Shown here: in pieces, positions 1,022-13,709 of the stretch
Numbering within the stretch: the stretch's first letter is position 1
How the letters are laid out: every line of letters begins with the position of its first letter
Assembly: GCA_013152415.1 (NCBI GenBank)
Contig: JAADGI010000019.1
Location: 130,000-193,999 of the forward strand
DNA from: Gammaproteobacteria bacterium
GTDB lineage: Bacteria; Pseudomonadota; Gammaproteobacteria; HyVt-429
Direction of reading: 5' to 3'
DNA length: 64,000 bases
The notes under the pieces: generated by a model
Databases searched by the model: none
Told to the model about the DNA's origin: nothing
What the model saw: the letters and a program-made list of their open reading frames with translations, nothing else
Made by a program: the position numbers and the translations under genes

Positions 1022-2431
1022 TCAGTGACTGTAGTAATCGTCAAAGTCAGGACTGGAGTAGTTTTCAAAGCGCGTAAACTCACCGAGAAAGGTCAGCCGC
1101 ACCGTGCCGATGGGGCCATTACGTTGCTTGCCGACAATAATTTCGGCAATACCCTTTTCATCGGTATCGTCATTGTACACTTCATCACGGTAGATAAAGA
1201 TAATCACATCGGCATCTTGCTCAATGGCACCCGACTCACGCAAGTCGGACATGACCGGAATTTTCTTTTTTCCTGGCCGTTGTTCCAGGGCGCGATTCAA
1301 CTGCGACAAGGCAATCAACGGCACATCAAGCTCTTTGGCCAGGGCCTTCAGCGAACGGGTAATGGCAGAAACCTCGGTGGCGCGGTTTTCGTTGCTATCC
1401 CCGGACTGCATAAGTTGCAGGTAGTCGACCACAATCAAGCCAAGCCCGTGTTCATGGTCCCGGGCCAAACGCCGTGCCCGGGCGCGTATCTCCAAGGGGG
1501 TCAACGCCGGGGTGTCATCAATGTAGATAGGGGCTGACCCTAGCAGGTGTGCCGCCGAACTCAGCCGGGGCCAATCATCATCATTGAGCTTGCCGGTTCT
1601 GAACTTCTGCGCATTGATACGCCCGGTAGAGGCCAGCATACGCATGGCCAACTGGCTCTCAGGCATTTCCATGCTGAAGATGGCCACTGGCAGTTGGTGC
1701 CCCAGGGCGGCATTCTCGGCGATGTTCATGGCCAGGGCGGTCTTACCCATGGAGGGCCGGCCAGCAATGATAATGAGGTCCGCTTTCTGAAACCCCGAGG
1801 TCAATTCATCCAGATCTTTATAGCCGGTGGGTACACCGGTAATGGGGTTATCGGATTGTGATAGCAAATCGATACGATCCATCACCCCGGGCAGGGCCGC
1901 CTTCATGGACCGGAACCCTTTCTGGGTCTGGGTGCCATGCCGGGCCAGCTCAAAAATCTCCTTTTCTGCGGCATCCAGAATTTCGTCTGGGCGCCGCCCT
2001 TGAGGACTGTAAGCACTTTGGGCGATGCCATTGGCCACCTCAATCAAGCCCCGCAATACCGCCCGTTCGCGAACGATTCGGCCATAGGCCTCAATATTGG
2101 CCACACTAGGGGTGTTTTTGGCCAAACCACCAATGTAGGTCAAGCCGCCTGCGGCCTCGAGTTGGCCATTTTTTCCCAGCCACTCGGATACCGTCACCAC
2201 ATCAGCCGGGGAGTCAGACTCACACAAGCTGCGTGTGGCGGCGAAGATGAGACGGTGGTCGCGGCGATAAAAATCACTCTCCGCCACCAGATCGGCGATC
2301 TGTTCCCAGCGGCGAAAATCGAGTAACAAGCCCCCCAATACCGATTGCTCAGCCTCCAGGGAATGAGGTGGCAGCTTTAGCGTATCCGTATCCGGATCGC
2401 TACGCTGGGGCAGATAGACGGGCTCCTCCAA
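1022..2431 (-). CDS. dnaB: replicative DNA helicase DnaB
   Basis: Track ORF 1022..2464 (480 aa) has the PPHSLEAEQSVLGG N-terminal motif, the Walker A GRPSMGKTA, and the RecA-like C-domain. The true start is probably TTG at about 2431, preceded by GGAGG. The ATG-extended N-terminus would overlap the rplI terminator. Confidence 0.9.
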   Translation of the reverse strand: MEEPVYLPQRSDPDTDTLKLPPHSLEAEQSVLGGLLLDFRRWEQIADLVAESDFYRRDHRLIFAATRSLCESDSPADVVTVSEWLGKNGQLEAAGGLTYIGGLAKNTPSVANIEAYGRIVRERAVLRGLIEVANGIAQSAYSPQGRRPDEILDAAEKEIFELARHGTQTQKGFRSMKAALPGVMDRIDLLSQSDNPITGVPTGYKDLDELTSGFQKADLIIIAGRPSMGKTALAMNIAENAALGHQLPVAIFSMEMPESQLAMRMLASTGRINAQKFRTGKLNDDDWPRLSSAAHLLGSAPIYIDDTPALTPLEIRARARRLARDHEHGLGLIVVDYLQLMQSGDSNENRATEVSAITRSLKALAKELDVPLIALSQLNRALEQRPGKKKIPVMSDLRESGAIEQDADVIIFIYRDEVYNDDTDEKGIAEIIVGKQRNGPIGTVRLTFLGEFTRFENYSSPDFDDYYSH

Positions 2432-2449
2432 TTTTCCTCCGCAAATACA

Positions 2450-2490
2450 AATAAACAACGACAAAACAGCCGGGCTGTCGCCTCCCGGCC
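2450..2490 (-). terminator. rho-independent terminator downstream of rplI
   Basis: On the minus strand, GCCGGGAGGCGACAGCCCGGC (6-bp GC stem) is followed by TGTTTTGTCGTTGTTTATTT. Confidence 0.5.
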
Positions 2491-2637
2491 TGGGTTCGGT
2501 TTATTGTACTTAACTACGGCGGCGCTGAGCAGTCTTGACAAGACCGGATTTCCGATGCGCACTACCGGCTAACGGAACCCCAACTTTTCGTCCAGGCTTG
2601 CTGGTCAATAAAAATACAGGGGCACCCCCTAAAAATA

Positions 2638-3087
2638 CTAGGCTTCACCCACAATGGAGACAATAATGTGGGCTGCCACCTCGGGATGAAGGGAGAGTTT
2701 AATCTCATGGTCCCCCACCACCTTCAGCGCACCGTCGGGCAGTAGTATTTCGGCCTTGGCCAAGTCAAACCCTGCCTCAGTGGCAGCACTGGCGATGTCA
2801 GGGGCGCCGACAGAACCAAACAGCTTGCCCTCTTCACCCACCTTCATAAGTATCTGCACCGTGACACCGTTGAGTTTCTCACCCCGTGCACTCGCCGTCG
2901 CCAGGGACTCGGCACCTGCCACTTCCAATTCCGCGCGTCGGGCTTCAAACTCTTTGAGATTGGCTGCAGTGGCCGGTACGGCCTTGCCCTTGGGCACAAG
3001 ATAATTGCGGGCATAGCCGGCCTTTACAGAGACCTTGGTACCGAGATCACCCAGGTTGCGTACTTTTTCGAGCAAAATGACATCCAT
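2638..3087 (-). CDS. rplI: 50S ribosomal protein L9
   Basis: [36 protein letters not shown] is a typical L9 N-domain. The length is 149 aa. Confidence 0.95.
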
Positions 3088-3144
3088 CAAATAGTCCTCA
3101 TCATCAGTTCACGGGCATGGTTCTTGGCATGCCCGTTGGGGCCA

Positions 3145-3372
3145 CTAGTCGTGCTGATCGCTGTAGGGCAACAAGGCGATGTAACGCGCCAGTTTAATGG
3201 CCCGTCCCAGTTGCCGCTGATAGCGTGCCTTGGTGCCGGTATTGCGGCTGGGGATAATCTTACCGCTCTCGCTGACATAACCCTTCAGGGTCGCGATATC
3301 CTTATAGTCGATCTCATCGACCCCAGCGGCAGTAAAACGACAAAACTTTTTACGTCGAAAATAACGTGACAT
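3145..3372 (-). CDS. rpsR: 30S ribosomal protein S18
   Basis: [55 protein letters not shown] is an S18 signature. Confidence 0.95.
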
Positions 3373-3374
3373 AT

Positions 3375-3902
3375 CTAGGCCTCCTCAGGAACAGGTTGAT
3401 CTGATGGCTTTGCCTCGTCCACCCCGGATTCGGCCGTAGCTGCATTCGCATCGGGGGTATCTGTACCTTCTTCTTTGCCATCTGCGGCAGACTTCCCGTC
3501 CTCGCTGGCCTCTTTGTTATCCGCGGCAGGTTTCGCATCCTGGCGGTCTTCCTTGCTCTCTGAGCCGGAATCCTCGTCGTCACGGGTGTCTCTGGCCAAA
3601 GGCGACGCCTCAGTGATGGCCTTATCTCGTTTTAGCACCAAGGAGCGAATCACCGCATCATTAAACCGAAATGCATTCTCCAGCTCATCAAGGGAATCCT
3701 GACCACACTCTATGTTCATTAACACATAGTGGGCCTTGTGGATTTTATTGATGGGATAGGCGAGTTGGCGGCGACCCCAATCTTCCAGACGATGAATCTG
3801 GCCTTGGGTACCTTCAATCATAGTGCGGTACCGATCGATCATCGCTGGTACCTGCTCACTCTGGTCAGGATGGACCAGGAAAACAACTTCGTAATGACGC
3901 AT
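3375..3902 (-). CDS. rpsF: 30S ribosomal protein S6 with long acidic C-terminal tail
   Basis: [25 protein letters not shown] marks the S6 core. There is about 70 aa of D/E/K/A-rich tail. It directly abuts rpsR, with no priB between them. Confidence 0.95.
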
Positions 3903-4331
3903 TGTAGCTCCTTACGGGTTAGTAGCCTCCTGTCACGCTGGACAGTAAGACAAGGAGTGTTGATCACCCAGCTATGCGGTGACCAAGAGAGCGCCGGAGT
4001 CTAAAGGAAAATGGCCCCACTGGAAAGCCGGAGGACAAACTAAATGGGGGTTAACCAAGGGCAGCGGGGGCTGTCGCCAATGCACCATGGAGAGGCTTGG
4101 TCTCACCCCAGGCCAAACGACCAATCACCCAGACGGCGTCACCGCTGAGGCATCACGCCTCTCCCGAAAACGCCCACGGAGAGGTCTGTGAATCACAGGT
4201 CCCTGCCAGGGAGGGTCTTGCCAATAGACGTTCGCCTGAGCGTTGCCACAACAGATGATCCATATCACTGAAACTCGAAGTGATCATGGTACTTTCCGGG
4301 ACTGGCTTTCCCTACTACCCTGTCTTTTTTG

Positions 4332-4347
4332 CTAGACTCAAGTCTAG
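4332..4347. promoter_or_regulatory. 7-2-7 inverted repeat CTAGACT-CA-AGTCTAG at the head of the RiPP-like operon
   Basis: Perfect 7-bp arms read directly. It lies in the only sizeable plus-strand intergenic region upstream of the peptidase-like/HprK-like/PqqD/rSAM genes. The track ORF at 4329 begins with TTG inside this repeat, so the real start is probably downstream. Confidence 0.3.
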
Positions 4348-4370
4348 TACAAGCCGTTTCAGCCTTGATT

Positions 4371-4832
4371 ATGACCCCCTTTCAAGCACCAAGCCCATCT
4401 CGCCACACCACGACACGGAATTGCAATGTGGTGACAGGATTACGGGAAATGGCCCGTCGGCGGGCCCTGTGGATGGATGTAACAGGGGATTGTATGGCAC
4501 CACAGCTCAATGCCAACCAGCAGGTCTGCGTCATCAACCGCCGCCTCTATTGGCCTGGTGATGTGGTGGCCTTTCGGGCCTGGGACGGCCAACTTCTGGT
4601 CCATCGGGTGTTGGGATATCGATTTAAAGGGGGCCACCCGGAACTGGTCACCTGCGCCGACCGTGCCAGCAAAAATGATGTACCGATCCAACTCGACCAA
4701 GTCATCGGTAAAGTGGTCGATGTAGCCCCTCCCAGCGACTTGCTCCCAATTTCCTTCTCATGCCGGGTCCGGGCAATCATTCGCTATTACCAACTGGCCT
4801 GGCGACAGATCAAGATACGTCTGAAAACATGA
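4371..4832 (+). CDS. signal-peptidase (S26/S24)-like protein with Cys/His in place of the Ser/Lys dyad
   Basis: VTGDCMAPQL aligns to the SPase I box B (SGSMxPTL) with Ser to Cys. LLVHRVLGY aligns to box D (VKRVIG) with Lys to His. The start is uncertain: ATG candidates are at 4371 and 4449. The stop overlaps the start of the next gene (ATGA). Confidence 0.5.
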   Translation: MTPFQAPSPSRHTTTRNCNVVTGLREMARRRALWMDVTGDCMAPQLNANQQVCVINRRLYWPGDVVAFRAWDGQLLVHRVLGYRFKGGHPELVTCADRASKNDVPIQLDQVIGKVVDVAPPSDLLPISFSCRVRAIIRYYQLAWRQIKIRLKT

Positions 4833-5746
4833 GCTTTGCCGATCGTTTTGTCCTGGATTCAGATCAATTTACCCCATCCTCACCGGGCCAAGCCTTTGGC
4901 AATCATCGGCTGGTGATTGATTTTGCCGGGGGCCCCTACGGATTTGATGGTCTGAGTGCGACACAAACGGATCGCATACGGGAACGCTTCCAAGACCTGT
5001 GTAGTGAGGACACATCCCGGCAAGTCAAAGTAAACACCCTTCTGTATCGCACACAAAACCGGTCTTTCCCTGACTTTGATCTCGACAATTGGGAATACAC
5101 TCTCGATTTTGAATACAAAGAGGCGTCTGTGGGTATTGCCGGCCTAAAATTCTTTGCCTACTTCGACCTCAGGCAGGGCAAGCAAAGCCATCTGTGGACT
5201 TCGACCGAAGATGATGATTATTTTACAGGTGTTTTCGAAAATTACTTTCGTGTAGTGGTGGCCTATCGACTATTAGCCTGTGGCGGAGTCTTGCTACACA
5301 GCGCCGGGGTAATCGATGAGGGCAATGCATACCTATTCTTCGGACCTTCTAACGCCGGCAAGACGACTGTTTCTCGTTTGAGCCAAGACAGTGGCCACAG
5401 TGTCTTGAGTGATGACATCAATGCCTTGCTGGCCGGACCCGCCCAGGATGTAGTCGCTGAAAAAATGCCATTTGCCGGTGAATTAGGTCAAACGGCAACA
5501 CCCAGTGGCACCTATCCGGTGCGCGGCCTGTTTCGACTCCACCAGGGGCCACGCAATGCTGTACGTGATATGCGTCCAAGCGAGGGTATCGCTGCCCTAG
5601 TGGCATGCTCACCTTATGTCAACGCCGACCCCGTCCGCCAGGACAGGTTGTTCGAGAACCTGGAGCACCTGAGCACCATTACGCCGGTACGTCATTTAAC
5701 TTTCTCCCTAGACCAACCTCTTTGGCCTTTACTCACAGGCCACTAA
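4829..5746 (+). CDS. HPr kinase-related P-loop protein (HprK-like C-terminal domain)
   Basis: HSAGVIDEGNAYLFFGPSNAGKTTVSRL...VLSDDINAL shows a GxxxxGKT P-loop followed by an SDD motif, as in the HprK/P C-domain. It is translationally coupled to the preceding ORF. Confidence 0.6.
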   Translation: MSFADRFVLDSDQFTPSSPGQAFGNHRLVIDFAGGPYGFDGLSATQTDRIRERFQDLCSEDTSRQVKVNTLLYRTQNRSFPDFDLDNWEYTLDFEYKEASVGIAGLKFFAYFDLRQGKQSHLWTSTEDDDYFTGVFENYFRVVVAYRLLACGGVLLHSAGVIDEGNAYLFFGPSNAGKTTVSRLSQDSGHSVLSDDINALLAGPAQDVVAEKMPFAGELGQTATPSGTYPVRGLFRLHQGPRNAVRDMRPSEGIAALVACSPYVNADPVRQDRLFENLEHLSTITPVRHLTFSLDQPLWPLLTGH

Positions 5747-5758
5747 AATGAGAGTAAC

Positions 5759-6067
5759 GTGACCCATCTATCCACTGTCTACAAACCGAGAAAGGATGTT
5801 CGCTACCGCATTGTTGCCGATGAGGCTGTGGTTGTACGCCAACAATCAACAGAGGTGCTTGTCCTTAACGAGGTCGCCGCACGTATATTACAGCTTCTGG
5901 ACGCACAGACTACGGTTAATGAATTGATCCATGCATTGGAAGCGGAGTTTGATATCGGCCCATCTCAACTTGAACACGATGTCATGGCTTTCATCAAGGA
6001 ACTTTTGAATGCCGGAGTAATTATGCCGGCAACATCCAACACGCCAAAAAGTAGCGATGAACTTTAA
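5759..6067 (+). CDS. PqqD-family protein (RiPP recognition element)
   Basis: 102 aa. YRIVADEAVVV...LNEVAARILQLLDAQTTVNELIHALEAEFDIGPSQLEHDVMAFIKELLNAGVI matches the PqqD/RRE pattern. Confidence 0.75.
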   Translation: MTHLSTVYKPRKDVRYRIVADEAVVVRQQSTEVLVLNEVAARILQLLDAQTTVNELIHALEAEFDIGPSQLEHDVMAFIKELLNAGVIMPATSNTPKSSDEL

Positions 6068-6085
6068 TGTAGCGGCAAACTCACC

Positions 6086-6364
6086 ATGAATATCACGCCA
6101 TCGACTCTGTTGAAAAAAAAATCCGACATCAGGCACCGAACTATTGATAATGAAGGCATTATCATGTGCCAGAATTCGGCAGACATTATCGCGGTAAATG
6201 CGGTTGGCAGCCGCATACTTGAACTCATAGACGGGCACAAAACTATTGACGACTGTCTGGCCATACTTGTTAACGAGTTTGACGTTGAGCCGTTGCAACT
6301 GCAACAGGACTGCCTGGATTTTATTTTAGACCTGATGCAAAACGATATTCTGGAATTGGCCTGA
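6086..6364 (+). CDS. PqqD-family protein (second tandem RRE)
   Basis: 92 aa. HRTIDNEGII...VNAVGSRILELIDGHKTIDDCLAILVNEFDVEPLQLQQDCLDFILDLMQNDIL is a paralogue of the preceding ORF. Confidence 0.75.
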   Translation: MNITPSTLLKKKSDIRHRTIDNEGIIMCQNSADIIAVNAVGSRILELIDGHKTIDDCLAILVNEFDVEPLQLQQDCLDFILDLMQNDILELA

Positions 6365-6387
6365 GTACAACCCAAAAACCTGACGCA

Positions 6388-7515
6388 ATGCCTACGCTAC
6401 TAGAAAAACTCAAGTCCAAGGCTGTGGCCAATAACCAGCTTCTTTCTGTAACCCTGGAACTCACCTATCGCTGCAATCTGGATTGTTTTATCTGCTATAA
6501 CGATCGTGACACCCAGGGCCAACTATTATCTTTAAAGCAATACAGGTCATTATTATTGTCGCTACAGAAAATGCAGGTGATGTTTCTCACCCTGACCGGC
6601 GGCGAACCCATGCTCCACCCGGAATTTTGGCCTATTGCTCAATATGCCCATGACCTGGGGTTTGTTGTGCGCCTTAAAACCAACGGTCACGCCCTTAACG
6701 ACAAACTGGCACTGAAGTTGAGAGAAGAAGTTGACCCGTCCATGGTGGATATCAGCATCCATGGTGCCAGTGCCGATACGCACGATAGGCAAACCAAGGT
6801 CCCAGGCAGTTTCACAAGACTGATGAGAAATCTTGAGATTCTGAATGGCTACGGGGTGAAGGTAAATTTGATGATGACCATAAGCCAATGGAATTTCTCT
6901 GAATTGGAAAGAATCCAGTCTCTAGCGGACTCATTGGGATTTCACTTGGATGCCTCTTCCACCATTACACCACGAGACAACGGGGATCGCATGCCCCAGT
7001 CCATTTCAATATCGTCTGAACAGACACGCCAATTGATAAGCCCGCAAACGGATCGTCTGGGTACGCAGGCCGTTCATTTTGACAACAATAGCCAACCTGT
7101 TTCAGGCACCCTGAACAAAGAAAATACTGCTGCTACAAAAGCAGACGAGCCGCCTGTTAACAAGCAATGTGGCTCAGGCTCATCTATTCTGGTCATTGAT
7201 CCCTATGGCCACGTTTACCCTTGCATGCAACTGCGCCGATTACTGGGAAATATTCACCATCAATCAATTGAAGAAATCTGGAGCCATTCACCGTCCCTCA
7301 AGGAAGTGCGAGACCTGTCCGCTGCGGCCAAACAATTGGTGGATTCATATGGAGAGGGATCAGAATACCTGGGCTACTGCATGGGATTGGCTGAACTGGC
7401 AACTGGTGATCCGGTTAAGATCTACCCACAAGCACAGCAACACTTCGAACTCACCCGAAAACTGCAGCGAGAAAGAATCCTCAAAAAACTGAGTCGATCA
7501 GTAACCCTTCGCTAG
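6388..7515 (+). CDS. radical SAM / SPASM-domain peptide-maturase-like enzyme
   Basis: CNLDCFIC is a CX3CX2C radical SAM motif near the N-terminus. GGEPMLHPEF is a SAM-binding motif. The C-terminal Cys-rich region (CGSGSS...YPCMQL...GYCMG) is typical of SPASM auxiliary clusters. Confidence 0.85.
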   Translation: MPTLLEKLKSKAVANNQLLSVTLELTYRCNLDCFICYNDRDTQGQLLSLKQYRSLLLSLQKMQVMFLTLTGGEPMLHPEFWPIAQYAHDLGFVVRLKTNGHALNDKLALKLREEVDPSMVDISIHGASADTHDRQTKVPGSFTRLMRNLEILNGYGVKVNLMMTISQWNFSELERIQSLADSLGFHLDASSTITPRDNGDRMPQSISISSEQTRQLISPQTDRLGTQAVHFDNNSQPVSGTLNKENTAATKADEPPVNKQCGSGSSILVIDPYGHVYPCMQLRRLLGNIHHQSIEEIWSHSPSLKEVRDLSAAAKQLVDSYGEGSEYLGYCMGLAELATGDPVKIYPQAQQHFELTRKLQRERILKKLSRSVTLR

Positions 7516-7538
7516 AGTGCAGCAACACCCCAATGACT

Positions 7539-7715
7539 TCAAGAACCCTGGATGATAGTACACATCCCAATAGGGGTTCCTATGGATTTGCCTGGGGTAC
7601 AGACCGCCGCCACCACTTCCAGGTGTTCCCTGGAGATAATCGCAGGCTTTTCATAGACACGTTTGACAGACCTGCAATCATCTGCTGATTTTTTTTCGGT
7701 CTTCCCGGTTTTCAT
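7539..7715 (-). CDS. candidate small Cys/Thr/Gly-rich peptide (possible RiPP precursor), 58 aa
   Basis: Hand-translated minus-strand ORF, too short for the track: MKTGKTEKKSADDCRSVKRVYEKPAIISREHLEVVAAVCTPGKSIGTPIGMCTIIQGS. It has a Lys-rich N-terminus, a YEKPxI motif and three Cys. It lies 43 bp downstream of the C25-like gene and converges on the radical SAM gene. There is no strong RBS. Confidence 0.25.
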   Translation of the reverse strand: MKTGKTEKKSADDCRSVKRVYEKPAIISREHLEVVAAVCTPGKSIGTPIGMCTIIQGS

Positions 7716-7758
7716 TTAGCAGAAATCCATATTGCTGGTACACACTTTGTAAACATAA

Positions 7759-10700
7759 CTAGTGACGTAGCGTGAGCCCTGGATCCCCTAACAAAATATA
7801 GATTTTTGGAATGTAGGCAAAACTTCCAGTTCTTGCTCGATACTCTCCTAAACTCTGCACAATGGCCTCACCCAGAGTTTCCGTACCGGTGTCAAAAACC
7901 GCCTGGAAGAGCTCCTGGTTTAAGCGCAATGCCTCACTGTCCAAAGATTGCCCTGACGGCGCCCAAACCGCGATCGCACCGCCCCCACTACGCAACACCA
8001 AGTCTTCACCGAGGGCATTGAATCCTGGGATCTCAAAACGTCCTACTGAACACGTCAGGGCACTGACTATCGGGTAGAGGTCATTTACCAAGGTGGGCAC
8101 ATCGCTGGACATCAACAGGGCATTTAATCGATCCAGGCCACCGTGGCCACGATAATTGAGCCAACTGGTCCCCTGTGCCAAACCATCAAAAAGGCGGTTT
8201 CGGGCCTGGTCTATAGGCAAACTGTCGGAAAGATATATCTTATCAACGCTGATATTTTGCGGTAGCAAGGTCAACAGTGCATTGCTGTCCACGGCAAACT
8301 CTCCTGCACTTTGATCTCGCTTGTCGGCAAGCATCGTCACGCTCGAGAGGGTTGTGCTGGCCTCGTAGCGCTTAATCTTATCGATGACGACAGCGAGCTC
8401 CCCCGCATTAAGTACAGGTATACGCCCGATAGCAAATTCGGGCACACCGTCGTCACCTACAACATCTGCATAGGCATTATCGGAGGCCATAATGCCACCG
8501 AAGGGTGTTGCCACCAGCAACGGTGGTAACAAATTTCCACCTACCTGCCAATGATCAAGATAATCAAAGGTGCCATCACCCACCAACACTACGAATCGAG
8601 GCACACCGGACCAAGCGTGACGGACATACTCCAGCATGGACTTAATCGCCACCGGCGATCTTAAACCGTACCCAAAGGTATTGTAGACGTCTTCCAGCGA
8701 AACCACCTTGCTGCTCAATCCCTGGGCTTGCCTGTAATCGGCCAGTACCTGGGCCCCTGCCATCAGAGATTGTGGGGCGATAAGCAGGTAATCGGCACTA
8801 TTTCGCCGACGCTTCAGATGCGTAGCTTTTTCGGCAACCATGGCGATTGCAGACTTGGCTGCGGTATTGGCGACAACAAAATATTCCGCAGTCGGCGACG
8901 AGGGCCGAAAGCTGACTTGATAAGCTGTACCCGCCTGCTGAACCCGAACACCCTTAATGCGTTTAGGCCTGTTTGGGCGCGAAATATCCAGCACAAAGAT
9001 ATTGGTGTCTGAAAAGCCCGTCACCGTGATCACCTCGTTACCATCACCGCGTAACAGAAGTTGATTGTTGAGCGCCCGATAACTACGGTGATAATTCAAT
9101 TCCAAACTGTCAAGATAGACATAACTGTAGGCGACGCCTGTATCCAGCAAACCACCCAGCTCAATACTGTTGTCCCCTTCTTGCAGCAAATCCTGACTGA
9201 AACTAAATGTTAGCGTGGCTGCATCGGTGCCCGACAGGTAGCCGTCCCCCACCCGCTGGCCATTGACATCCACTTTGATGTGGTGATCAAGTTCAACTTT
9301 TGCGTCGTTACTGTAACCTTGAAGATTGACATTTAAGCTCACTTCGTCCGTTACACTGGCAAGCTCAGCGGCCTGAATGGTAAATACCTTGCTTGCGGCC
9401 CCGGCAATAATCACGTCCCAATGCCAGAAGTCACCCGCAGGATCGGTAGCGGTCACGGTGACCGGAACCACGTCCTGTTCGGCCTGAACCCGACTCAAAA
9501 AACTCTGCCCATCGGGTGCAGGGCCTGTCCTCCTGCCTTTCCTGGAATGCACCTGTTTGCCCTTGCCGCGAGACAACCAATAGACATTCTCATCGGTAAA
9601 ATTACTTTCCAGCGCCTCGGCATAGAAATAGAGCCCGGTGTTAGCTCGGGCCTTGATATAGGCCACAGATTTACCCCGGTTAGTGAGCCTTATCCGCCTG
9701 TGCTTTAATAACTTCCGGAACTGAGCGGACCCAAGCCCCAGCAAATCAGCAGCTTGTGCAGCATCCACGTAGTAAAGGCCCGCCTCTTTAACTGTGATCT
9801 TTACCCGTCCCCGACCTCGGTCCCGGTTTCGATGCTTTTCCTTCTTCAGTTTTGCGTGCCTTTTGGCAAGCTTGCTCTTGTCCAGGCGCTTGAGTTGCTT
9901 TGGGGATATCTCTTGGGCGTGGTGCGCATATTTCTTGCCCATCCGCTTGGCCCGCTTGTAGCCAGACGGCTTATCTGACACATAGCCCTCGCCATCCACG
10001 GTGACTGTAAATGGCCCATAGCGATGTTTTTTGCCGGTCGCTTCTACTTCAATCAATTTATAGCGGTATGTTTCTCCCGATACCGCACCTGAATCCATAA
10101 AGACGTAAGATCCTCCCTGCGGGGTATTGAGCAATGCGGGCAATATTTCATCATTGATCCGTTTGTATTTACCGGTATCCGGATCCTTTCGCTTTAAATG
10201 AAATCCCAAGGTCCCTATCTGCGAGGTCGTACGCCATTCAAGCTGTGTCCCACCATCCACAGTTCGCGCCATAAAAGACGCCAGGGAAACATAAGTTGTG
10301 CCACGCGGCTTAAAGGCGCACTCGACTGCTTCATAGTCCCCTGCCCCTCTGCTATTTGAACTGCGACCACCATGTAACGGCCAGCCTTCGGTGCCACTGC
10401 CTGTATCCGTCACCTGAGCAACCGCCACCGTCGGGCCACCGGGGCTGGCGGGTATGATGATTTCCCACAGCCGATTGCGGATGCGGTTGGGACCGGCGTT
10501 ACCGGTCAAACCGTAGAGCGTGGACGTAGCGGTGGCGCTGTTGTAGGCAAAGCTGAGACCTTCCATGTCTGCCGTGGTGCCTCCGCCATCGGCAAACGCG
10601 CCATAATCAACTGGCGCCACCGTGTTGGAACCGGAAGTCCAGTCAACTGCGTAGAGGTTACTGGGACTGCTGATCCAGAAACGGCCATAGCCCGAGGCAT

Positions 10701-11922
10701 TGGGATTTACATTCACCGGATCAATGCCAAGATCATCGGCCCGGGTCAGTCCTGATGAATTGCTGATGGTGATGTAATCAATACCCGCACCGAAGGTATC
10801 CGTTGCCATCTGACCTTCATTGGCACCGGAGGTCTCCACCACAAACAAAATCCGGGAACCCGAATTGCTACCGCTTTCGGGGGTATCAAGGGCAAACATC
10901 AAACCGGTATAAGGGTCAAAGGCCATGGCATCTACATCGGTGACGATACCAGAAGAAGTGCTGCCATCGGAGCCTGAACCAATGGGATTGAGCAACGGAA
11001 AAGTCGCACCCGAGGAGCGGTCAACCCGATAGATCTGGCCGCCGCTGGCGGTATAAAGCGTGCCGTCATCGGGGTCCATGGCCATAGTCTCGGCACCCCT
11101 GACACCATTGGCACCGACTACACAACTGCGACCGGTGTTGATATTGGCATCGGGGTTACCGCCGACACATTCAACCGGATCGGCAGCCGTTGGATTATCA
11201 TCAATGAGGTGGGTATAACGTAATAGATTGTCAGCATCCGAAATCAGATAGCAGATTTGACTCACAGGGGGTGCCAAATAGCCGGCAAATTCGACATGCA
11301 AGCGGGCAGCCTGGGTACGCCTGCCATTATAGGACTCTGCGGTACGCTGGCATGCGCTAGAGGCACAAGCACTACCCGCTTGAATAACAAATGTCATCGC
11401 GTTGCCGGCACTCCAACCACTGCGGTCGACAATTTCCTGGACGATGCTGGTCAGATCAGGGGTCCTTTTGTGCTCATCGTCACTATCGGCGACGTTCCAG
11501 GGACTGATTGACGACCAGGGGACGGTTGCCGAGGTCAGTGTACGACCTGAAATATTGTCGCTGGTGCTGAAGGTGACTGAATTGTCTGTATCTTCGCCGT
11601 TGATCACCACATTGGTGGCACCACTATCATTTTCATCTACGGTAAATTCGATATAGGCACGGGTAATACTTGTACCCTGGGGAACCTGTAAGTCCTGAAA
11701 TCGCATACCAACAAGTTGTTGGGTACTGCCATCAAAGACCAGCTCCAAATCAGAACTGGTGATGTACATGGAACCGGGGGGTGAACCTGAAAATTGCTCT
11801 TCCGCGTCGTCGGTACTCTGACTGACAATACGGTCGAGCTGGACCGCACTGGCAGGGACGCTGAATCCTAGCAGCAGTAAGCTCAGAAAAAACACCCCCC
11901 ATCTGCGGGAGGCCAGGATCAT
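7759..11922 (-). CDS. large secreted peptidase C25 (gingipain/clostripain-fold)-like protein
   Basis: Signal peptide MILASRRWGVFFLSLLLLGFSVPASA, so the start is taken at the internal Met. The C-terminal about 450 aa show NYRGHG (His) followed by SALTCSVGRFE (Cys), the order expected for the C25 His/Cys dyad. A central, extremely basic K/R-rich linker reads KRAKRMGKKYAHH...KLKKEKHRNRDRGRGR. Confidence 0.7.
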   Translation of the reverse strand: MILASRRWGVFFLSLLLLGFSVPASAVQLDRIVSQSTDDAEEQFSGSPPGSMYITSSDLELVFDGSTQQLVGMRFQDLQVPQGTSITRAYIEFTVDENDSGATNVVINGEDTDNSVTFSTSDNISGRTLTSATVPWSSISPWNVADSDDEHKRTPDLTSIVQEIVDRSGWSAGNAMTFVIQAGSACASSACQRTAESYNGRRTQAARLHVEFAGYLAPPVSQICYLISDADNLLRYTHLIDDNPTAADPVECVGGNPDANINTGRSCVVGANGVRGAETMAMDPDDGTLYTASGGQIYRVDRSSGATFPLLNPIGSGSDGSTSSGIVTDVDAMAFDPYTGLMFALDTPESGSNSGSRILFVVETSGANEGQMATDTFGAGIDYITISNSSGLTRADDLGIDPVNVNPNASGYGRFWISSPSNLYAVDWTSGSNTVAPVDYGAFADGGGTTADMEGLSFAYNSATATSTLYGLTGNAGPNRIRNRLWEIIIPASPGGPTVAVAQVTDTGSGTEGWPLHGGRSSNSRGAGDYEAVECAFKPRGTTYVSLASFMARTVDGGTQLEWRTTSQIGTLGFHLKRKDPDTGKYKRINDEILPALLNTPQGGSYVFMDSGAVSGETYRYKLIEVEATGKKHRYGPFTVTVDGEGYVSDKPSGYKRAKRMGKKYAHHAQEISPKQLKRLDKSKLAKRHAKLKKEKHRNRDRGRGRVKITVKEAGLYYVDAAQAADLLGLGSAQFRKLLKHRRIRLTNRGKSVAYIKARANTGLYFYAEALESNFTDENVYWLSRGKGKQVHSRKGRRTGPAPDGQSFLSRVQAEQDVVPVTVTATDPAGDFWHWDVIIAGAASKVFTIQAAELASVTDEVSLNVNLQGYSNDAKVELDHHIKVDVNGQRVGDGYLSGTDAATLTFSFSQDLLQEGDNSIELGGLLDTGVAYSYVYLDSLELNYHRSYRALNNQLLLRGDGNEVITVTGFSDTNIFVLDISRPNRPKRIKGVRVQQAGTAYQVSFRPSSPTAEYFVVANTAAKSAIAMVAEKATHLKRRRNSADYLLIAPQSLMAGAQVLADYRQAQGLSSKVVSLEDVYNTFGYGLRSPVAIKSMLEYVRHAWSGVPRFVVLVGDGTFDYLDHWQVGGNLLPPLLVATPFGGIMASDNAYADVVGDDGVPEFAIGRIPVLNAGELAVVIDKIKRYEASTTLSSVTMLADKRDQSAGEFAVDSNALLTLLPQNISVDKIYLSDSLPIDQARNRLFDGLAQGTSWLNYRGHGGLDRLNALLMSSDVPTLVNDLYPIVSALTCSVGRFEIPGFNALGEDLVLRSGGGAIAVWAPSGQSLDSEALRLNQELFQAVFDTGTETLGEAIVQSLGEYRARTGSFAYIPKIYILLGDPGLTLRH

Positions 11923-12566
11923 GCGGGGTGTCTGTTTTAATGAAAAACACGAAAACAAGACGGAGAGCGGTTGCAAAATACCCAACCCAGAGGAAAGATT
12001 CAGATCACGTGGGAACGGTAGGCTATTTTTCATGGTCATACCCCGATATTGGCTCGGCGGTCCCTGCGACCAAGTGCATGGTGCATCAAAATCAGGAAGT
12101 TCGCATTATCAAGGTGCCGCGTATGTGTGCCTGCCTGGTCTACCGGACCCTTGCTGCGGCAAACATTGCACCCTCAGATAATAGCGAAAAACCCACTAAT
12201 AATATGGTATTACTGCCCTGACTTAAACCAAAGTATAACCCAAACTGGCGCTGTTCCCCAGTCTTCCTGGGCCATGGTTTAGAGGGGGCTTGAATCTGTG
12301 CCCGGGCCATCAATGTAGACACAAAACCTGCACCGCTGCTTCCTTATCGACTGAAAATGGGAAATCTTTAAGCCAGGACTCACTCCCTGGGCCCAAGCCC
12401 AACCATATCAAAACCCATGACACACTGGGTCCTTTATGGATAAACTCTCCCCCCCATTGGCCCGAATGGGCACAGAGGTGTGAGACTATGTTTTGCGCGT
12501 ACCCTCAAATCCGGGAAAGGGCATTTCGCCAGATCAAATCAGCTTAGCTTGTGACGATAAATCAGT

Positions 12567-13709
12567 TTGACCCCTCTACCCGTTTACTTAGACATACTCT
12601 CTGGCCATCTGGCTTCTGAAGACTATAACCTGCCCAGGCACTGGCATGAGCACGATTGGCAGCGTTACCTGGACCTGGCTCAAAACCATGGTGTATTACC
12701 CCTTGTCCAGGACCGATTATTAAACGCAAACCATACCGTACAATCCCCACCTTCCATAAGGTCTGCCATTGAACAAGGCCTAAAAAACCAGGCCATCCTG
12801 GAAATTCTGCAAACACTGGAACTACAACGTGTTTTAGGTGCATTTAATAAAAACAACACCCCGGTCCTGGTGTTTAAGGGGGGTGCCCTTGCCCACAGCC
12901 ACTATCCCGAGGCCAAACTACGCCCCCGGGATGATACTGACCTGTTAATTGGGCAATCAAATCGTGAACAATCTGCAGAAATTCTTGAGGTACTTGGCTA
13001 TAGCGCCCAAAACACCATTAGTGGACGTCGCATCATGCACCAGTGTAACTATAGCTATACCGATCAGCAGGGCTGTCCCCATGTGGTCGACTTACACTGG
13101 CGCCTGAGTAATCCGACTGCGTTTTCTGAGCTGTTGGATTTTGAGAGTCTGTGGCAACGCTCGGTGCTGATTCCAGTTCTTGGCCAAGGTGCACGGTGTC
13201 CGACCCAAGTCGATGCGCTATTGATTGCATGCATCCATCGTCTCGCCCATCACCACAATAATCATCGATTGATCTGGCTGATGGACATTCACCTGCTGCT
13301 AACGGCTCTCAGCAAGTCGGAGTCATTGGAATTTGCCCGACGGGCACGAGAGATCGGCGTAGCAGCCATTTGTACGCAGGGGCTAAAACTCAGCCGGGAC
13401 TATTTTAACACCAAGCTCTCTCCCGCCCTGCTCAAAATACTGTCCCAAACCGAAGCCACGAAGGTAAGTAAGGCAGAGAGCCATACCCGTAAATACCTTA
13501 ACAAAGATAGAAGCCACTGGGATAACTACATAGATGACTTGCGTGCGCTACCACACTGGCGGGCCCGAGTGGCTTATCTTCACGAGACCTTGTTCCCGGA
13601 TGCAGATTACTTGCTCGGTCGCTACAATACCCGCCACCGAATCTTACTGCCCATACTGTATCTGTATCGCCTGCTACGTGGCTTTCTCAGGCTACTGCAA
13701 AAACGCTAG
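12567..13709 (+). CDS. uncharacterised nucleotidyltransferase-family protein (PF14907-like)
   Basis: 380 aa with a TTG start. The N-terminal region (LDLAQNHGVLPLVQDRL) and central NTase-like segment (VLVFKGGALAHSHYPEAKLRPRDDTDLLI) resemble the family that co-occurs with PqqD/radical SAM/HprK-like cassettes. It is divergent from the C25-like gene. Confidence 0.6.
   Translation: MTPLPVYLDILSGHLASEDYNLPRHWHEHDWQRYLDLAQNHGVLPLVQDRLLNANHTVQSPPSIRSAIEQGLKNQAILEILQTLELQRVLGAFNKNNTPVLVFKGGALAHSHYPEAKLRPRDDTDLLIGQSNREQSAEILEVLGYSAQNTISGRRIMHQCNYSYTDQQGCPHVVDLHWRLSNPTAFSELLDFESLWQRSVLIPVLGQGARCPTQVDALLIACIHRLAHHHNNHRLIWLMDIHLLLTALSKSESLEFARRAREIGVAAICTQGLKLSRDYFNTKLSPALLKILSQTEATKVSKAESHTRKYLNKDRSHWDNYIDDLRALPHWRARVAYLHETLFPDADYLLGRYNTRHRILLPILYLYRLLRGFLRLLQKR

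Follow-up and report, generated by a model that had tools for sequence, protein, structure and literature searches.

The window analysed here, a 64,000-nucleotide stretch of contig JAADGI010000019.1 from a Gammaproteobacteria bacterium (positions 130,000 to 193,999 of the forward strand), carries a group of maturation genes next to the rpsF operon. This locus probably encodes an undescribed, widely distributed pathway of the ribosomally synthesised and post-translationally modified peptide (RiPP) type, in which a 58-residue peptide would be matured. The candidate enzymes are a peptidase resembling SEC11/SipW-type signal peptidases, a P-loop protein of the ScmC family, two PqqD proteins, a radical S-adenosylmethionine (SAM) enzyme, a large peptidase of family C25 and a PF14907-type nucleotidyltransferase. 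Sequence comparison shows that there is a substrate family, that the enzymes accompany it across phyla and that their catalytic residues are intact. A literature search found no published description of the gene set. Coordinates throughout are window positions, codes of the form L001 denote the related loci that were compared, and open reading frames (ORFs) were called mechanically.

A conserved precursor peptide

A previously unnoticed minus-strand ORF, lying between the stop codons of the radical SAM and C25 genes, is on comparative sequence grounds the precursor of the maturation cassette; an earlier sequence-only reading of this DNA had found no precursor annotated. Its 58-residue product, MKTGKTEKKSADDCRSVKRVYEKPAIISREHLEVVAAVCTPGKSIGTPIGMCTIIQGS, combines a leader motif Y-x-x-P-x-I...E-x-L-E-x-x-A with a core of the form C-x(7-16, with Lys)-C-x(5-8) and a final Ser, and it matches no NCBIfam or Pfam model. 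The orthologue in L001–L004, from a genome related at 86–87%, differs by 12 synonymous and 11 nonsynonymous codon changes and one in-frame codon indel, with changes in the leader motif exclusively synonymous, and judged by this pattern of codon change the ORF is a conserved gene under purifying selection. A weak GGA lies about 11 nt upstream of the ATG, and no strong ribosome-binding signal was seen in the consensus scan.

The family to which the peptide belongs is large. After tblastn, a precursor profile run over all stop-to-stop frames recovered 75 copies in 69 of the 84 related loci (E = 1e-7 to 1e-22), and a profile search of protein databases extended the family to 763 clusters, all of 49–98 residues, in which members that bear a name are labelled 'hypothetical' and Pfam domains are absent throughout. 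Motif positions were counted back from the first Cys over 192 sequences comprising 140 distinct cores. Fixed positions in these precursors are Tyr/Trp(-18), Pro(-15), Ile/Val/Thr(-13), Glu(-6) and Ala(-3); two Cys follow with 7–16 residues between them, at least one Lys stands between the two Cys in every sequence (192/192), and the C-terminal residue is always Ser (192/192). Position -5 holds a small residue in 95 per cent of the precursors, which together with Ala(-3) makes an A-x-A-like site. A double-glycine leader site of the C39 type was considered and rejected, the spacing being one residue off and a C39 transporter not being present.

In one subfamily of precursors (L005, L006, L011, L027, L034 and L040) the last three residues are G-F-S and the first Cys is directly preceded by Asp or Glu. 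Its loci show the order C25, peptide, PqqD, radical SAM, ScmC, with no SEC11-like gene, and this subfamily may be a distinct subtype processed by C25 alone.

Recurrence of the gene set across genomes

Related loci were gathered by scanning genomes with an alignment of the ScmC-like protein, which returned 80 loci, and counts were made on 81 non-redundant loci by profile search, used in place of single-linkage clustering of ORFs, which is noisy in high-GC metagenome-assembled genomes (MAGs) with their over-extended and shadow ORFs. A gene missing from an 8-kb flank is not thereby missing from the genome, and the counts are to be read with this in mind. The loci come from Thermoanaerobaculia and other Acidobacteriota, Competibacteraceae, Casimicrobiaceae, Desulfobulbaceae and other Proteobacteria (Gamma, Beta and Delta), and Binatia. 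A PqqD gene accompanies the ScmC-like gene in 78 of the 81, a radical SAM gene in 70, the precursor in 66, an S24/S26-like (SEC11-like) peptidase in 65, a C25 peptidase in 45 and a PF14907 nucleotidyltransferase in 39. Since the same set recurs in 81 non-redundant loci from several phyla while the gene order changes, the linkage is far beyond chance. The sequence-only reading had proposed peptide modification by radical SAM chemistry guided by RiPP recognition elements (RREs), and had made the proposal hang on a conserved small substrate ORF and on co-occurrence of the genes in other genomes; both were found, and the PqqD, radical SAM, peptidase and kinase-like genes do travel together across phyla.

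The two peptidases are distributed in a partly complementary way. C25 is present in 14 of the 16 loci that have no SEC11-like gene, the two exceptions being short contigs (Fisher p = 0.005), and the SEC11-like gene is present in every other locus without C25; because contigs are truncated, this complementarity is suggestive only.

Several loci carry further genes beside the cassette. In L050, from Competibacter, one co-directional run consists of the nucleotidyltransferase, an MsbA/HlyB-type ATP-binding cassette (ABC) exporter, the cassette, C25 and the peptide. At positions 2020–7080 of this locus, and also at 3901–5507 of L014, a lasso-type B2 protease homologue, a lasso-like PqqD, a PF14907 gene and an ABC exporter precede the cassette; the B2 homologue, found near the cassette in L050 alone, scores 57 bits (cutoff 33), and no lasso cyclase is visible there. 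In several Acidobacteriota loci (L077, 12879–15688; L080, 2322–5170) a triad made up of a PqqD, an HprK_rel_A-like kinase (59–61 bits, cutoff 200) and a PF14907 protein lies beside the cassette and looks like a second, paralogous tailoring module. Some 20 acidobacterial loci resemble L068 (390–7594) in having, upstream and co-directional, genes for Wzy_C (O-antigen-ligase-like), TPR, a divergent PF14907 protein and unannotated proteins of 390–490 residues. These flanking genes may reflect lineage synteny or extra components, and several of the conserved acidobacterial flanking ORFs have no Pfam match.

PqqD proteins and the radical SAM enzyme

PqqD 1 scores 63 bits on the Pfam PqqD model and 45.5 bits on NCBIfam PQQ_PqqD (cutoff 46). 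It is the orthologue of the single PqqD of most loci, with 40–55% identity to the PqqD that adjoins the radical SAM gene elsewhere. PqqD 2 (Pfam PqqD, 45.4 bits; a 66-residue form from an internal Met is possible) recurs in L001–L004 at 84% identity, and this second copy is specific to an Acidiferrobacteraceae-like clade, most other loci having one PqqD. The genome from which the window comes is itself an Acidiferrobacteraceae-like gammaproteobacterial MAG. On the PqqD model of the NCBIfam 'HPr-rel-A system' (TIGR04353, cutoff 35), PqqD 1 reaches 34.2 bits and PqqD 2 gives no match.

The radical SAM protein matches Radical_SAM at 70.6 bits and SPASM at 38.3 bits over model positions 1–52 of 67. 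It has exactly six Cys, namely C29, C33 and C36 of the CX3CX2C motif together with C261, C279 and C331, and all six are invariant across the family (64 homologues). Neither a CX2CX5CX3C motif nor the seven-Cys SPASM set was found in the protein, which has three C-terminal Cys only, and so the SPASM-type C-terminus of the sequence-only reading gives way to a predicted truncated SPASM or twitch-like domain that could hold one auxiliary cluster. Twitch domains are truncated SPASM domains that bind a single auxiliary cluster, and one enzyme of this type, SkfB, forms thioethers (PMC10114670). Among solved sequences the nearest are BlsE, SkfB, PqqE and CteB. As a radical SAM maturase should, the enzyme has RRE partners, in the two upstream PqqD genes, and an adjacent precursor, on the other strand; no RRE is fused to the enzyme itself. 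All NCBIfam equivalog scores fall far below cutoff, the best being that for the mycofactocin maturase (121 bits against 265).

This last score bears on the possibility that maturation turns the peptide into a cofactor, or into a small subunit of an enzyme, with the C25 protein as its partner; precedents would be PQQ, mycofactocin and, in quinohemoprotein amine dehydrogenase, the crosslinked gamma subunit. A discrete PqqD with a radical SAM enzyme that has no fused RRE is also the layout of PqqD/PqqE and MftB/MftC, and the peptide gene stands in co-transcription orientation with C25 in 41 of 72 cases, the pair being duplicated as a unit. However, cofactor precursors do not vary as this core does (140 distinct cores in 192 sequences, with a loop of 7–16 residues), no conserved dehydrogenase or redox partner lies nearby in the compared loci, and 36 of the 81 loci have no C25 gene in their flanks. 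We therefore consider a cofactor or subunit quite unlikely.

A kinase-like protein of the ScmC family

The 305-residue protein encoded after the SEC11-like peptidase has homologues labelled Pfam PF27840 'ScmC'. It scores 24 bits on the NCBIfam ScmC model (TIGR04249, cutoff 125), with weak matches also to PEPCK P-loop models, and 11.4 bits (E = 0.13) on HprK-related kinase A (TIGR04352, cutoff 200). Among 28 family members, 26 matched ScmC, 22 HprK_rel_A, 20 HprK_rel_B and 23 PEPCK, all below cutoffs, the best HprK_rel_A match having E = 2.4e-5. The protein, modelled with AlphaFold2 (AF2) at a predicted local distance difference test score (pLDDT) of 91.3, has the HprK/PEPCK fold, and the sequence carries the lasso-type kinase motif H-x14-G-x2-G-x-G-K-[ST]-x15-D-D. 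The invariant residues are H157, G172, G177, K178, D195 and D196 (the window protein also has T179, next to K178), and their spacing is identical to that of the lasso-kinase motif H148-G163-G166-G168-K169-S170-D186-D187.

By analogy with the lasso kinases, we propose that the protein is an ATP-dependent precursor kinase whose target is most likely the invariant C-terminal Ser. Lasso precursors with nothing but a C-terminal Ser in common are phosphorylated on that residue by HprK homologues (PMC8498205), and an RRE speeds up the reaction of an HprK-like lasso-precursor kinase (PMC10368454).

The sequence-only reading placed this protein in the HprK-related kinase family, and the score of 11.4 bits against a cutoff of 200, together with the ScmC label, argues otherwise. 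Membership of the whole cassette in the HprK-related-kinase/PqqD/PF14907 neighbourhood ('HPr-rel-A system') is likewise very unlikely. PqqD 1 falls just short of the cutoff of the PqqD model for that system, a PF14907 gene is present in the window, 22 of the 28 family members match HprK_rel_A weakly, and triads with an HprK_rel_A-like kinase (itself sub-cutoff) stand beside the cassette in L077 and L080; yet the family scores better on ScmC, the adjacent HprK_rel_A-like proteins form a separate paralogous family (107–136 bits on the ScmC-family profile, against 397–454 for orthologues), and in roughly half of the loci the fetched flanks lack PF14907. These separate triads explain why the sequence-only reading had such neighbourhoods typically include a PF14907 gene. 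The gene does occur in 39 of the 81 loci and the triads do occur in some Acidobacteriota, so that the association stands in part, but the kinase-like protein of the window is not a member of HprK-related kinase A or B.

A similar argument applies to the idea that the cassette is a copy of the canonical SynChlorMet (SCM) cassette, which consists of ScmC, ScmD and the radical SAM/SPASM enzymes ScmE and ScmF. ScmC is the best NCBIfam match of the 305-residue protein as well as its Pfam label, the PqqD proteins match ScmD, and the radical SAM protein matches both ScmE and ScmF. The scores, however, are far too low (24 bits against 125 for ScmC, 34.2 and 22.6 against 100 for ScmD, 91.2 against 400 for ScmE and 82.8 against 400 for ScmF), and only one radical SAM gene is present, with three auxiliary Cys rather than seven. 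The SEC11-like peptidase, C25 and this precursor family are not known to belong to the SCM definition in the TIGRFAM descriptions. That the cassette is a canonical SCM copy is hard to credit.

Peptidases and nucleotidyltransferase

The first gene of the cassette most likely starts at ATG 4449, as in the gene calls of its relatives, rather than at TTG 4329. Its 127-residue product barely exceeds the Pfam cutoff of Peptidase_S24 (23.7 bits) and scores 33.6 bits on the NCBIfam archaeal-type signal peptidase I model (TIGR02228, cutoff 51.85). The best match of the family profile is human SEC11A (7p2p, E = 3.8e-5), in an alignment that pairs G-S56-MEP with G-x-C-M-x-P and vH96R with vHR and includes both Asp; the AF2 model (pLDDT 80) resembles the LexA C-domain, SipA and SEC11C. 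Candidate catalytic residues of the window peptidase are His52, Asp71/Asp77 and Cys15, the last replacing the usual Ser nucleophile. The nucleophile column holds Cys in 51 and Ser in 11 of 63 orthologues, with the His in 63/63, and Cys in 117 and Ser in 21 of 153 database representatives, among which no hydrophobic run of more than eight residues, and hence no membrane anchor, was found. The SEC11A match, the predicted folds, the nucleophile counts and the want of a transmembrane-length run together indicate a soluble homologue of the signal peptidases of the endoplasmic reticulum (ER) and archaea, mostly with Cys. The signal-peptidase homology of the sequence-only reading thus holds, with the start moved and the type refined to SEC11 with Cys for Ser.

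We propose this protein as the putative leader peptidase. It is encoded directly upstream of the ScmC-like gene in 65 of the 81 loci, usually with a 4-nt overlap with the ScmC-like start, and because its gene is translationally coupled to peptide-maturation genes, it probably acts on a leader peptide and not on a Sec signal peptide.

The C25 protein matches Peptidase_C25 at 245.7 bits (residues 1084–1424) and, at 210.6 bits against a cutoff of 420, the model of PorU (NF033707; residues 813–1425), the C25-family sortase of the type IX secretion system. Its N-terminus, MILASRRWGVFFLSLLLLGFSVPASA, resembles by eye a Sec signal peptide. The catalytic His in GHG and Cys in TC are kept in 35 of 36 C25 homologues, and a sequence search of the PDB gave no match for the protein. 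A 53-residue linker rich in Lys and Arg (KRAKRMGKKYAHH...RNRDRGRGRVK; 9799–9957, minus strand) separates the PorU-like part from an N-terminal region of about 650 residues without a Pfam match; in all, about 770 N-terminal residues are unannotated.

There is reason to think that this enzyme belongs to the system. Of 72 precursor genes, 41 have a C25 gene as their immediate upstream neighbour in the same orientation, and the C25–peptide pair has been duplicated as a unit in L027, L031, L034 and L040, where diverged peptides accompany a single set of maturation genes. We propose it as a putative extracytoplasmic processing enzyme or dedicated peptide partner. The sequence-only reading had allowed that C25 was either part of the cassette or cargo of the same insertion; it is the former that the pairing favours. 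Its gene is not co-directional with the cassette, being on the minus strand and convergent.

Because C25-family enzymes are typically Arg- or Lys-specific (gingipains R and K), the Lys found between the two Cys in 192 of 192 sequences invites another explanation, in which the matured peptide is a substrate mimic that presents Lys in a constrained loop and regulates or inhibits its cognate gingipain-family C25, or is cleaved at the invariant Lys. Each duplicated C25 gene does have its own diverged peptide gene; however, the Lys is equally invariant in loci with no nearby C25 gene, and since the peptide has no signal peptide its meeting with a secreted enzyme would be unexplained. We find such a role for the Lys very doubtful.

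The remaining gene encodes a PF14907 (NTP_transf_5) protein at 166.2 bits. Genes of this family often lie directly upstream of the peptidase and ScmC genes, or are paired with a second HprK-like kinase, and we propose that the product is an accessory, frequently linked tailoring enzyme of putative function. In the lasso peptide pseudomycoidin, the C-terminal Ser carries a phosphate that is extended with hexose by a nucleotidyltransferase (PMC8498205).

A proposed maturation pathway

The enzymes can be placed in a provisional order. PqqD would first bind the YxxPxI leader motif and present the peptide; lasso leaders have YxxPxL at -17 to -12, which is read by PqqD-type RREs (PMC10368454), and the YxxPxI of the precursor matches it. 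The radical SAM enzyme would then crosslink the core once or more, most plausibly through thioethers from the two Cys, and its single three-Cys auxiliary cluster site could accept a substrate Cys as fourth ligand. The ScmC-like enzyme with ATP would phosphorylate the invariant C-terminal Ser, probably aided by a PqqD; as an RRE accelerates such a kinase, the second PqqD of the window could be explained in this way. Where present, the nucleotidyltransferase would extend the phosphate, and lasso clusters often contain HPr kinase and PqqD together with an 'uncharacterized nucleotidyltransferase'. The cytoplasmic SEC11-like Cys/His/Asp peptidase would cut the leader at the A-x-A site, three residues before the first Cys, so that the window peptide would be split after Ala36, between VVA and AVC. 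The secreted C25 enzyme may finally act on the exported peptide, whether as its dedicated partner or as a leader protease, second or alternative to the SEC11-like one.

Several observations weigh against this scheme. What kind of crosslink forms, which residue is phosphorylated and where the leader is cut are all inferred by analogy. The best family scores of the radical SAM enzyme are those of mycofactocin and heme/NirJ enzymes, not of thioether synthases. BsfK, an HprK-like lasso kinase, phosphorylates Ser3 of the core and not the C-terminal residue (PMC10368454), and with this precedent the C-terminal Ser is not guaranteed as the site. Ala(-3) is still invariant in loci without a SEC11-like peptidase and may therefore serve another purpose. 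No exporter gene is adjacent in the window, although the C25 enzyme appears to be secreted, and the fetched flanks contain no C25 in 36 loci and no nucleotidyltransferase in 42. The sample itself was retrieved with ScmC and is dominated by MAG contigs of Thermoanaerobaculia, many of them truncated, on which ORFs were called mechanically.

The matured peptide might also be, rather than a free antibiotic-like product, a dedicated partner of the PorU-like C25. Cleavage by the SEC11-like peptidase would free an N-terminal amine, the kinase and nucleotidyltransferase would build a phospho-linked group on the C-terminal Ser, and the sortase-like C25 would use the peptide as a linker or anchor, substrate mimic or subunit. 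The separate peptide gene of each duplicated C25 and the O-antigen-ligase-like genes in the same acidobacterial gene runs can be offered for this role, which we nonetheless rate as improbable.

For a gene set so far known only as an orphan neighbourhood of 'hypothetical', ScmC-type genes, a precursor family has now been defined, with fixed handles (two Cys, Lys and C-terminal Ser). The family is common in Acidobacteriota of soil and sediment and in Competibacter of wastewater, and with the precursor identified the pathway becomes directly testable by co-expression and mass spectrometry.

Locus layout and neighbourhood

The genes of the locus are listed in Table 1. All ORFs were present on re-check, and the five plus-strand genes at 4449–7515 are co-directional and coupled as the sequence-only reading described them, with the same ATGA overlap and short gaps. 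The C25 gene converges on these five and is co-directional with the precursor gene, which it directly precedes.

Table 1. Positions of the cassette, precursor, C25 and nucleotidyltransferase genes in the window.
Gene	Position	Strand	Product	Remarks
SEC11/SipW-type peptidase	4449..4832	+	127 aa	maximal ORF from TTG 4329
ScmC-family P-loop protein	4829..5746	+	305 aa	ATGA overlap 4829-4832
PqqD 1	5759..6067	+	102 aa	12-nt gap before
PqqD 2	6086..6364	+	92 aa	18-nt gap before
Radical SAM enzyme	6388..7515	+	375 aa	23-nt gap before
Precursor peptide	7715..7539	-	58 aa	3' end 23 nt past radical SAM stop codon
C25 peptidase	7759..11922	-	1387 aa from signal-peptide Met	maximal ORF to 12039
PF14907 (NTP_transf_5) nucleotidyltransferase	12567..13709	+	380 aa

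The locus is flanked upstream by rpsF-rpsR-rplI-dnaB and downstream by cpdA. The rpsF gene is divergent from the cassette, and a 546-bp non-coding stretch (3903–4448) separates it from the first cassette gene; within this gap there was no Rfam match at gathering score and no promoter signal above chance. The Rfam scan returned three distant tRNAs and nothing else, and the consensus scan for promoters and terminators stayed at chance level. GC content falls to 0.46–0.49 over 5500–8000, which spans the PqqD, radical SAM and precursor genes, against about 0.55 in the flanks, a mild compositional anomaly.

An insertion of the genes next to rpsF, as the sequence-only reading had it, was considered as a recent event and rejected. 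L009, a gammaproteobacterial MAG, has the same divergent rpsF adjacency, and since its ScmC-like proteins are only 44–47% identical the arrangement is old. In this genome the cassette occupies 1593–6691, RpsF is 80% identical, a second ScmC-like and PqqD pair faces the first, and a C25 gene was not found within 10.5 kb.

The weak GGA and the absence of promoter, terminator or strong ribosome-binding evidence in the consensus scan could be taken to mean that the genes are chance neighbours and the small ORF no gene, which the comparative data effectively refute, the same set recurring in several phyla with changing gene order and the ORF showing synonymous-biased divergence, an in-frame indel and membership of a 763-cluster protein family.

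Comparison with known systems

The SCM cassette (TIGR04248–TIGR04251; PF27840) is similar to this locus in having a ScmC-family protein, a PqqD homologue, radical SAM chemistry and no known product. It differs in that two SPASM enzymes stand where the window has one radical SAM enzyme with three auxiliary Cys, and every equivalog cutoff is missed widely; the window adds two peptidases, one SEC11-like and one of family C25, together with the nucleotidyltransferase and a defined precursor family, a comparison in which the SCM definition is taken from NCBIfam model names. Because the cutoffs are missed, the locus is an equivalog member of neither the SCM nor the HPr-rel-A system.

Sactipeptide and ranthipeptide pathways (SkfB, CteB) likewise combine a core that contains Cys and a leader recognised by an RRE with a radical SAM enzyme whose auxiliary domain holds a cluster. 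In the window, by contrast, the RRE is separate and not fused, the core has two Cys and an invariant Lys only, and the thioether is a prediction; the radical SAM protein is far below the cutoffs of the NCBIfam sactipeptide and ranthipeptide models.

With the ER and archaeal signal peptidases (SEC11A, SipW; MEROPS S26B), the first peptidase shares the fold, its nucleophile, His and two-Asp motifs can be aligned with theirs, and the precursors carry an A-x-A-like site. The family differs in its Cys nucleophile, found in about 80 per cent of members, and in having no membrane anchor. A soluble protease of signal-peptidase fold with Cys for Ser, apparently recruited as a leader peptidase, would possibly be a first in enzymology.

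The C25 enzyme shares with PorU the catalytic His and Cys and a PorU-like architecture over about 610 residues, at half of the PorU cutoff, and enzymes of the window type occur in Proteobacteria and Acidobacteriota. It also resembles extracellular leader peptidases such as NisP in being apparently secreted and encoded beside the peptide that it may process. For a PorU-like secreted cysteine peptidase so tightly paired with a small modified peptide, we found no described parallel.

The locus also resembles the tailoring module of lasso peptides, as in paeninodin (PadeK), pseudomycoidin (PsmK/PsmN) and Bradymonas (BsfK/BsfB1/BsfN). The window kinase has the same fold and the same H...GxxGxGK[ST]...DD motif and spacing, the precursors likewise have a YxxPx(L/I) leader and an invariant C-terminal Ser, and a PqqD partner and an 'uncharacterised nucleotidyltransferase' co-occur in both. 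In contrast to lasso clusters, the window cassette was found to have no lasso cyclase and no B2 protease; its core would be modified by a radical SAM/twitch protein, its leader protease would be SEC11-like, and its kinase falls in the ScmC family rather than in HprK-related A or B. A kinase family of PEPCK/HprK fold paired with a radical SAM enzyme instead of the lasso machinery would be a second possible first. The locus works like a hybrid, in which a twitch/SPASM radical SAM RiPP pathway is joined to the kinase, RRE and nucleotidyltransferase tailoring module of the lasso peptides.

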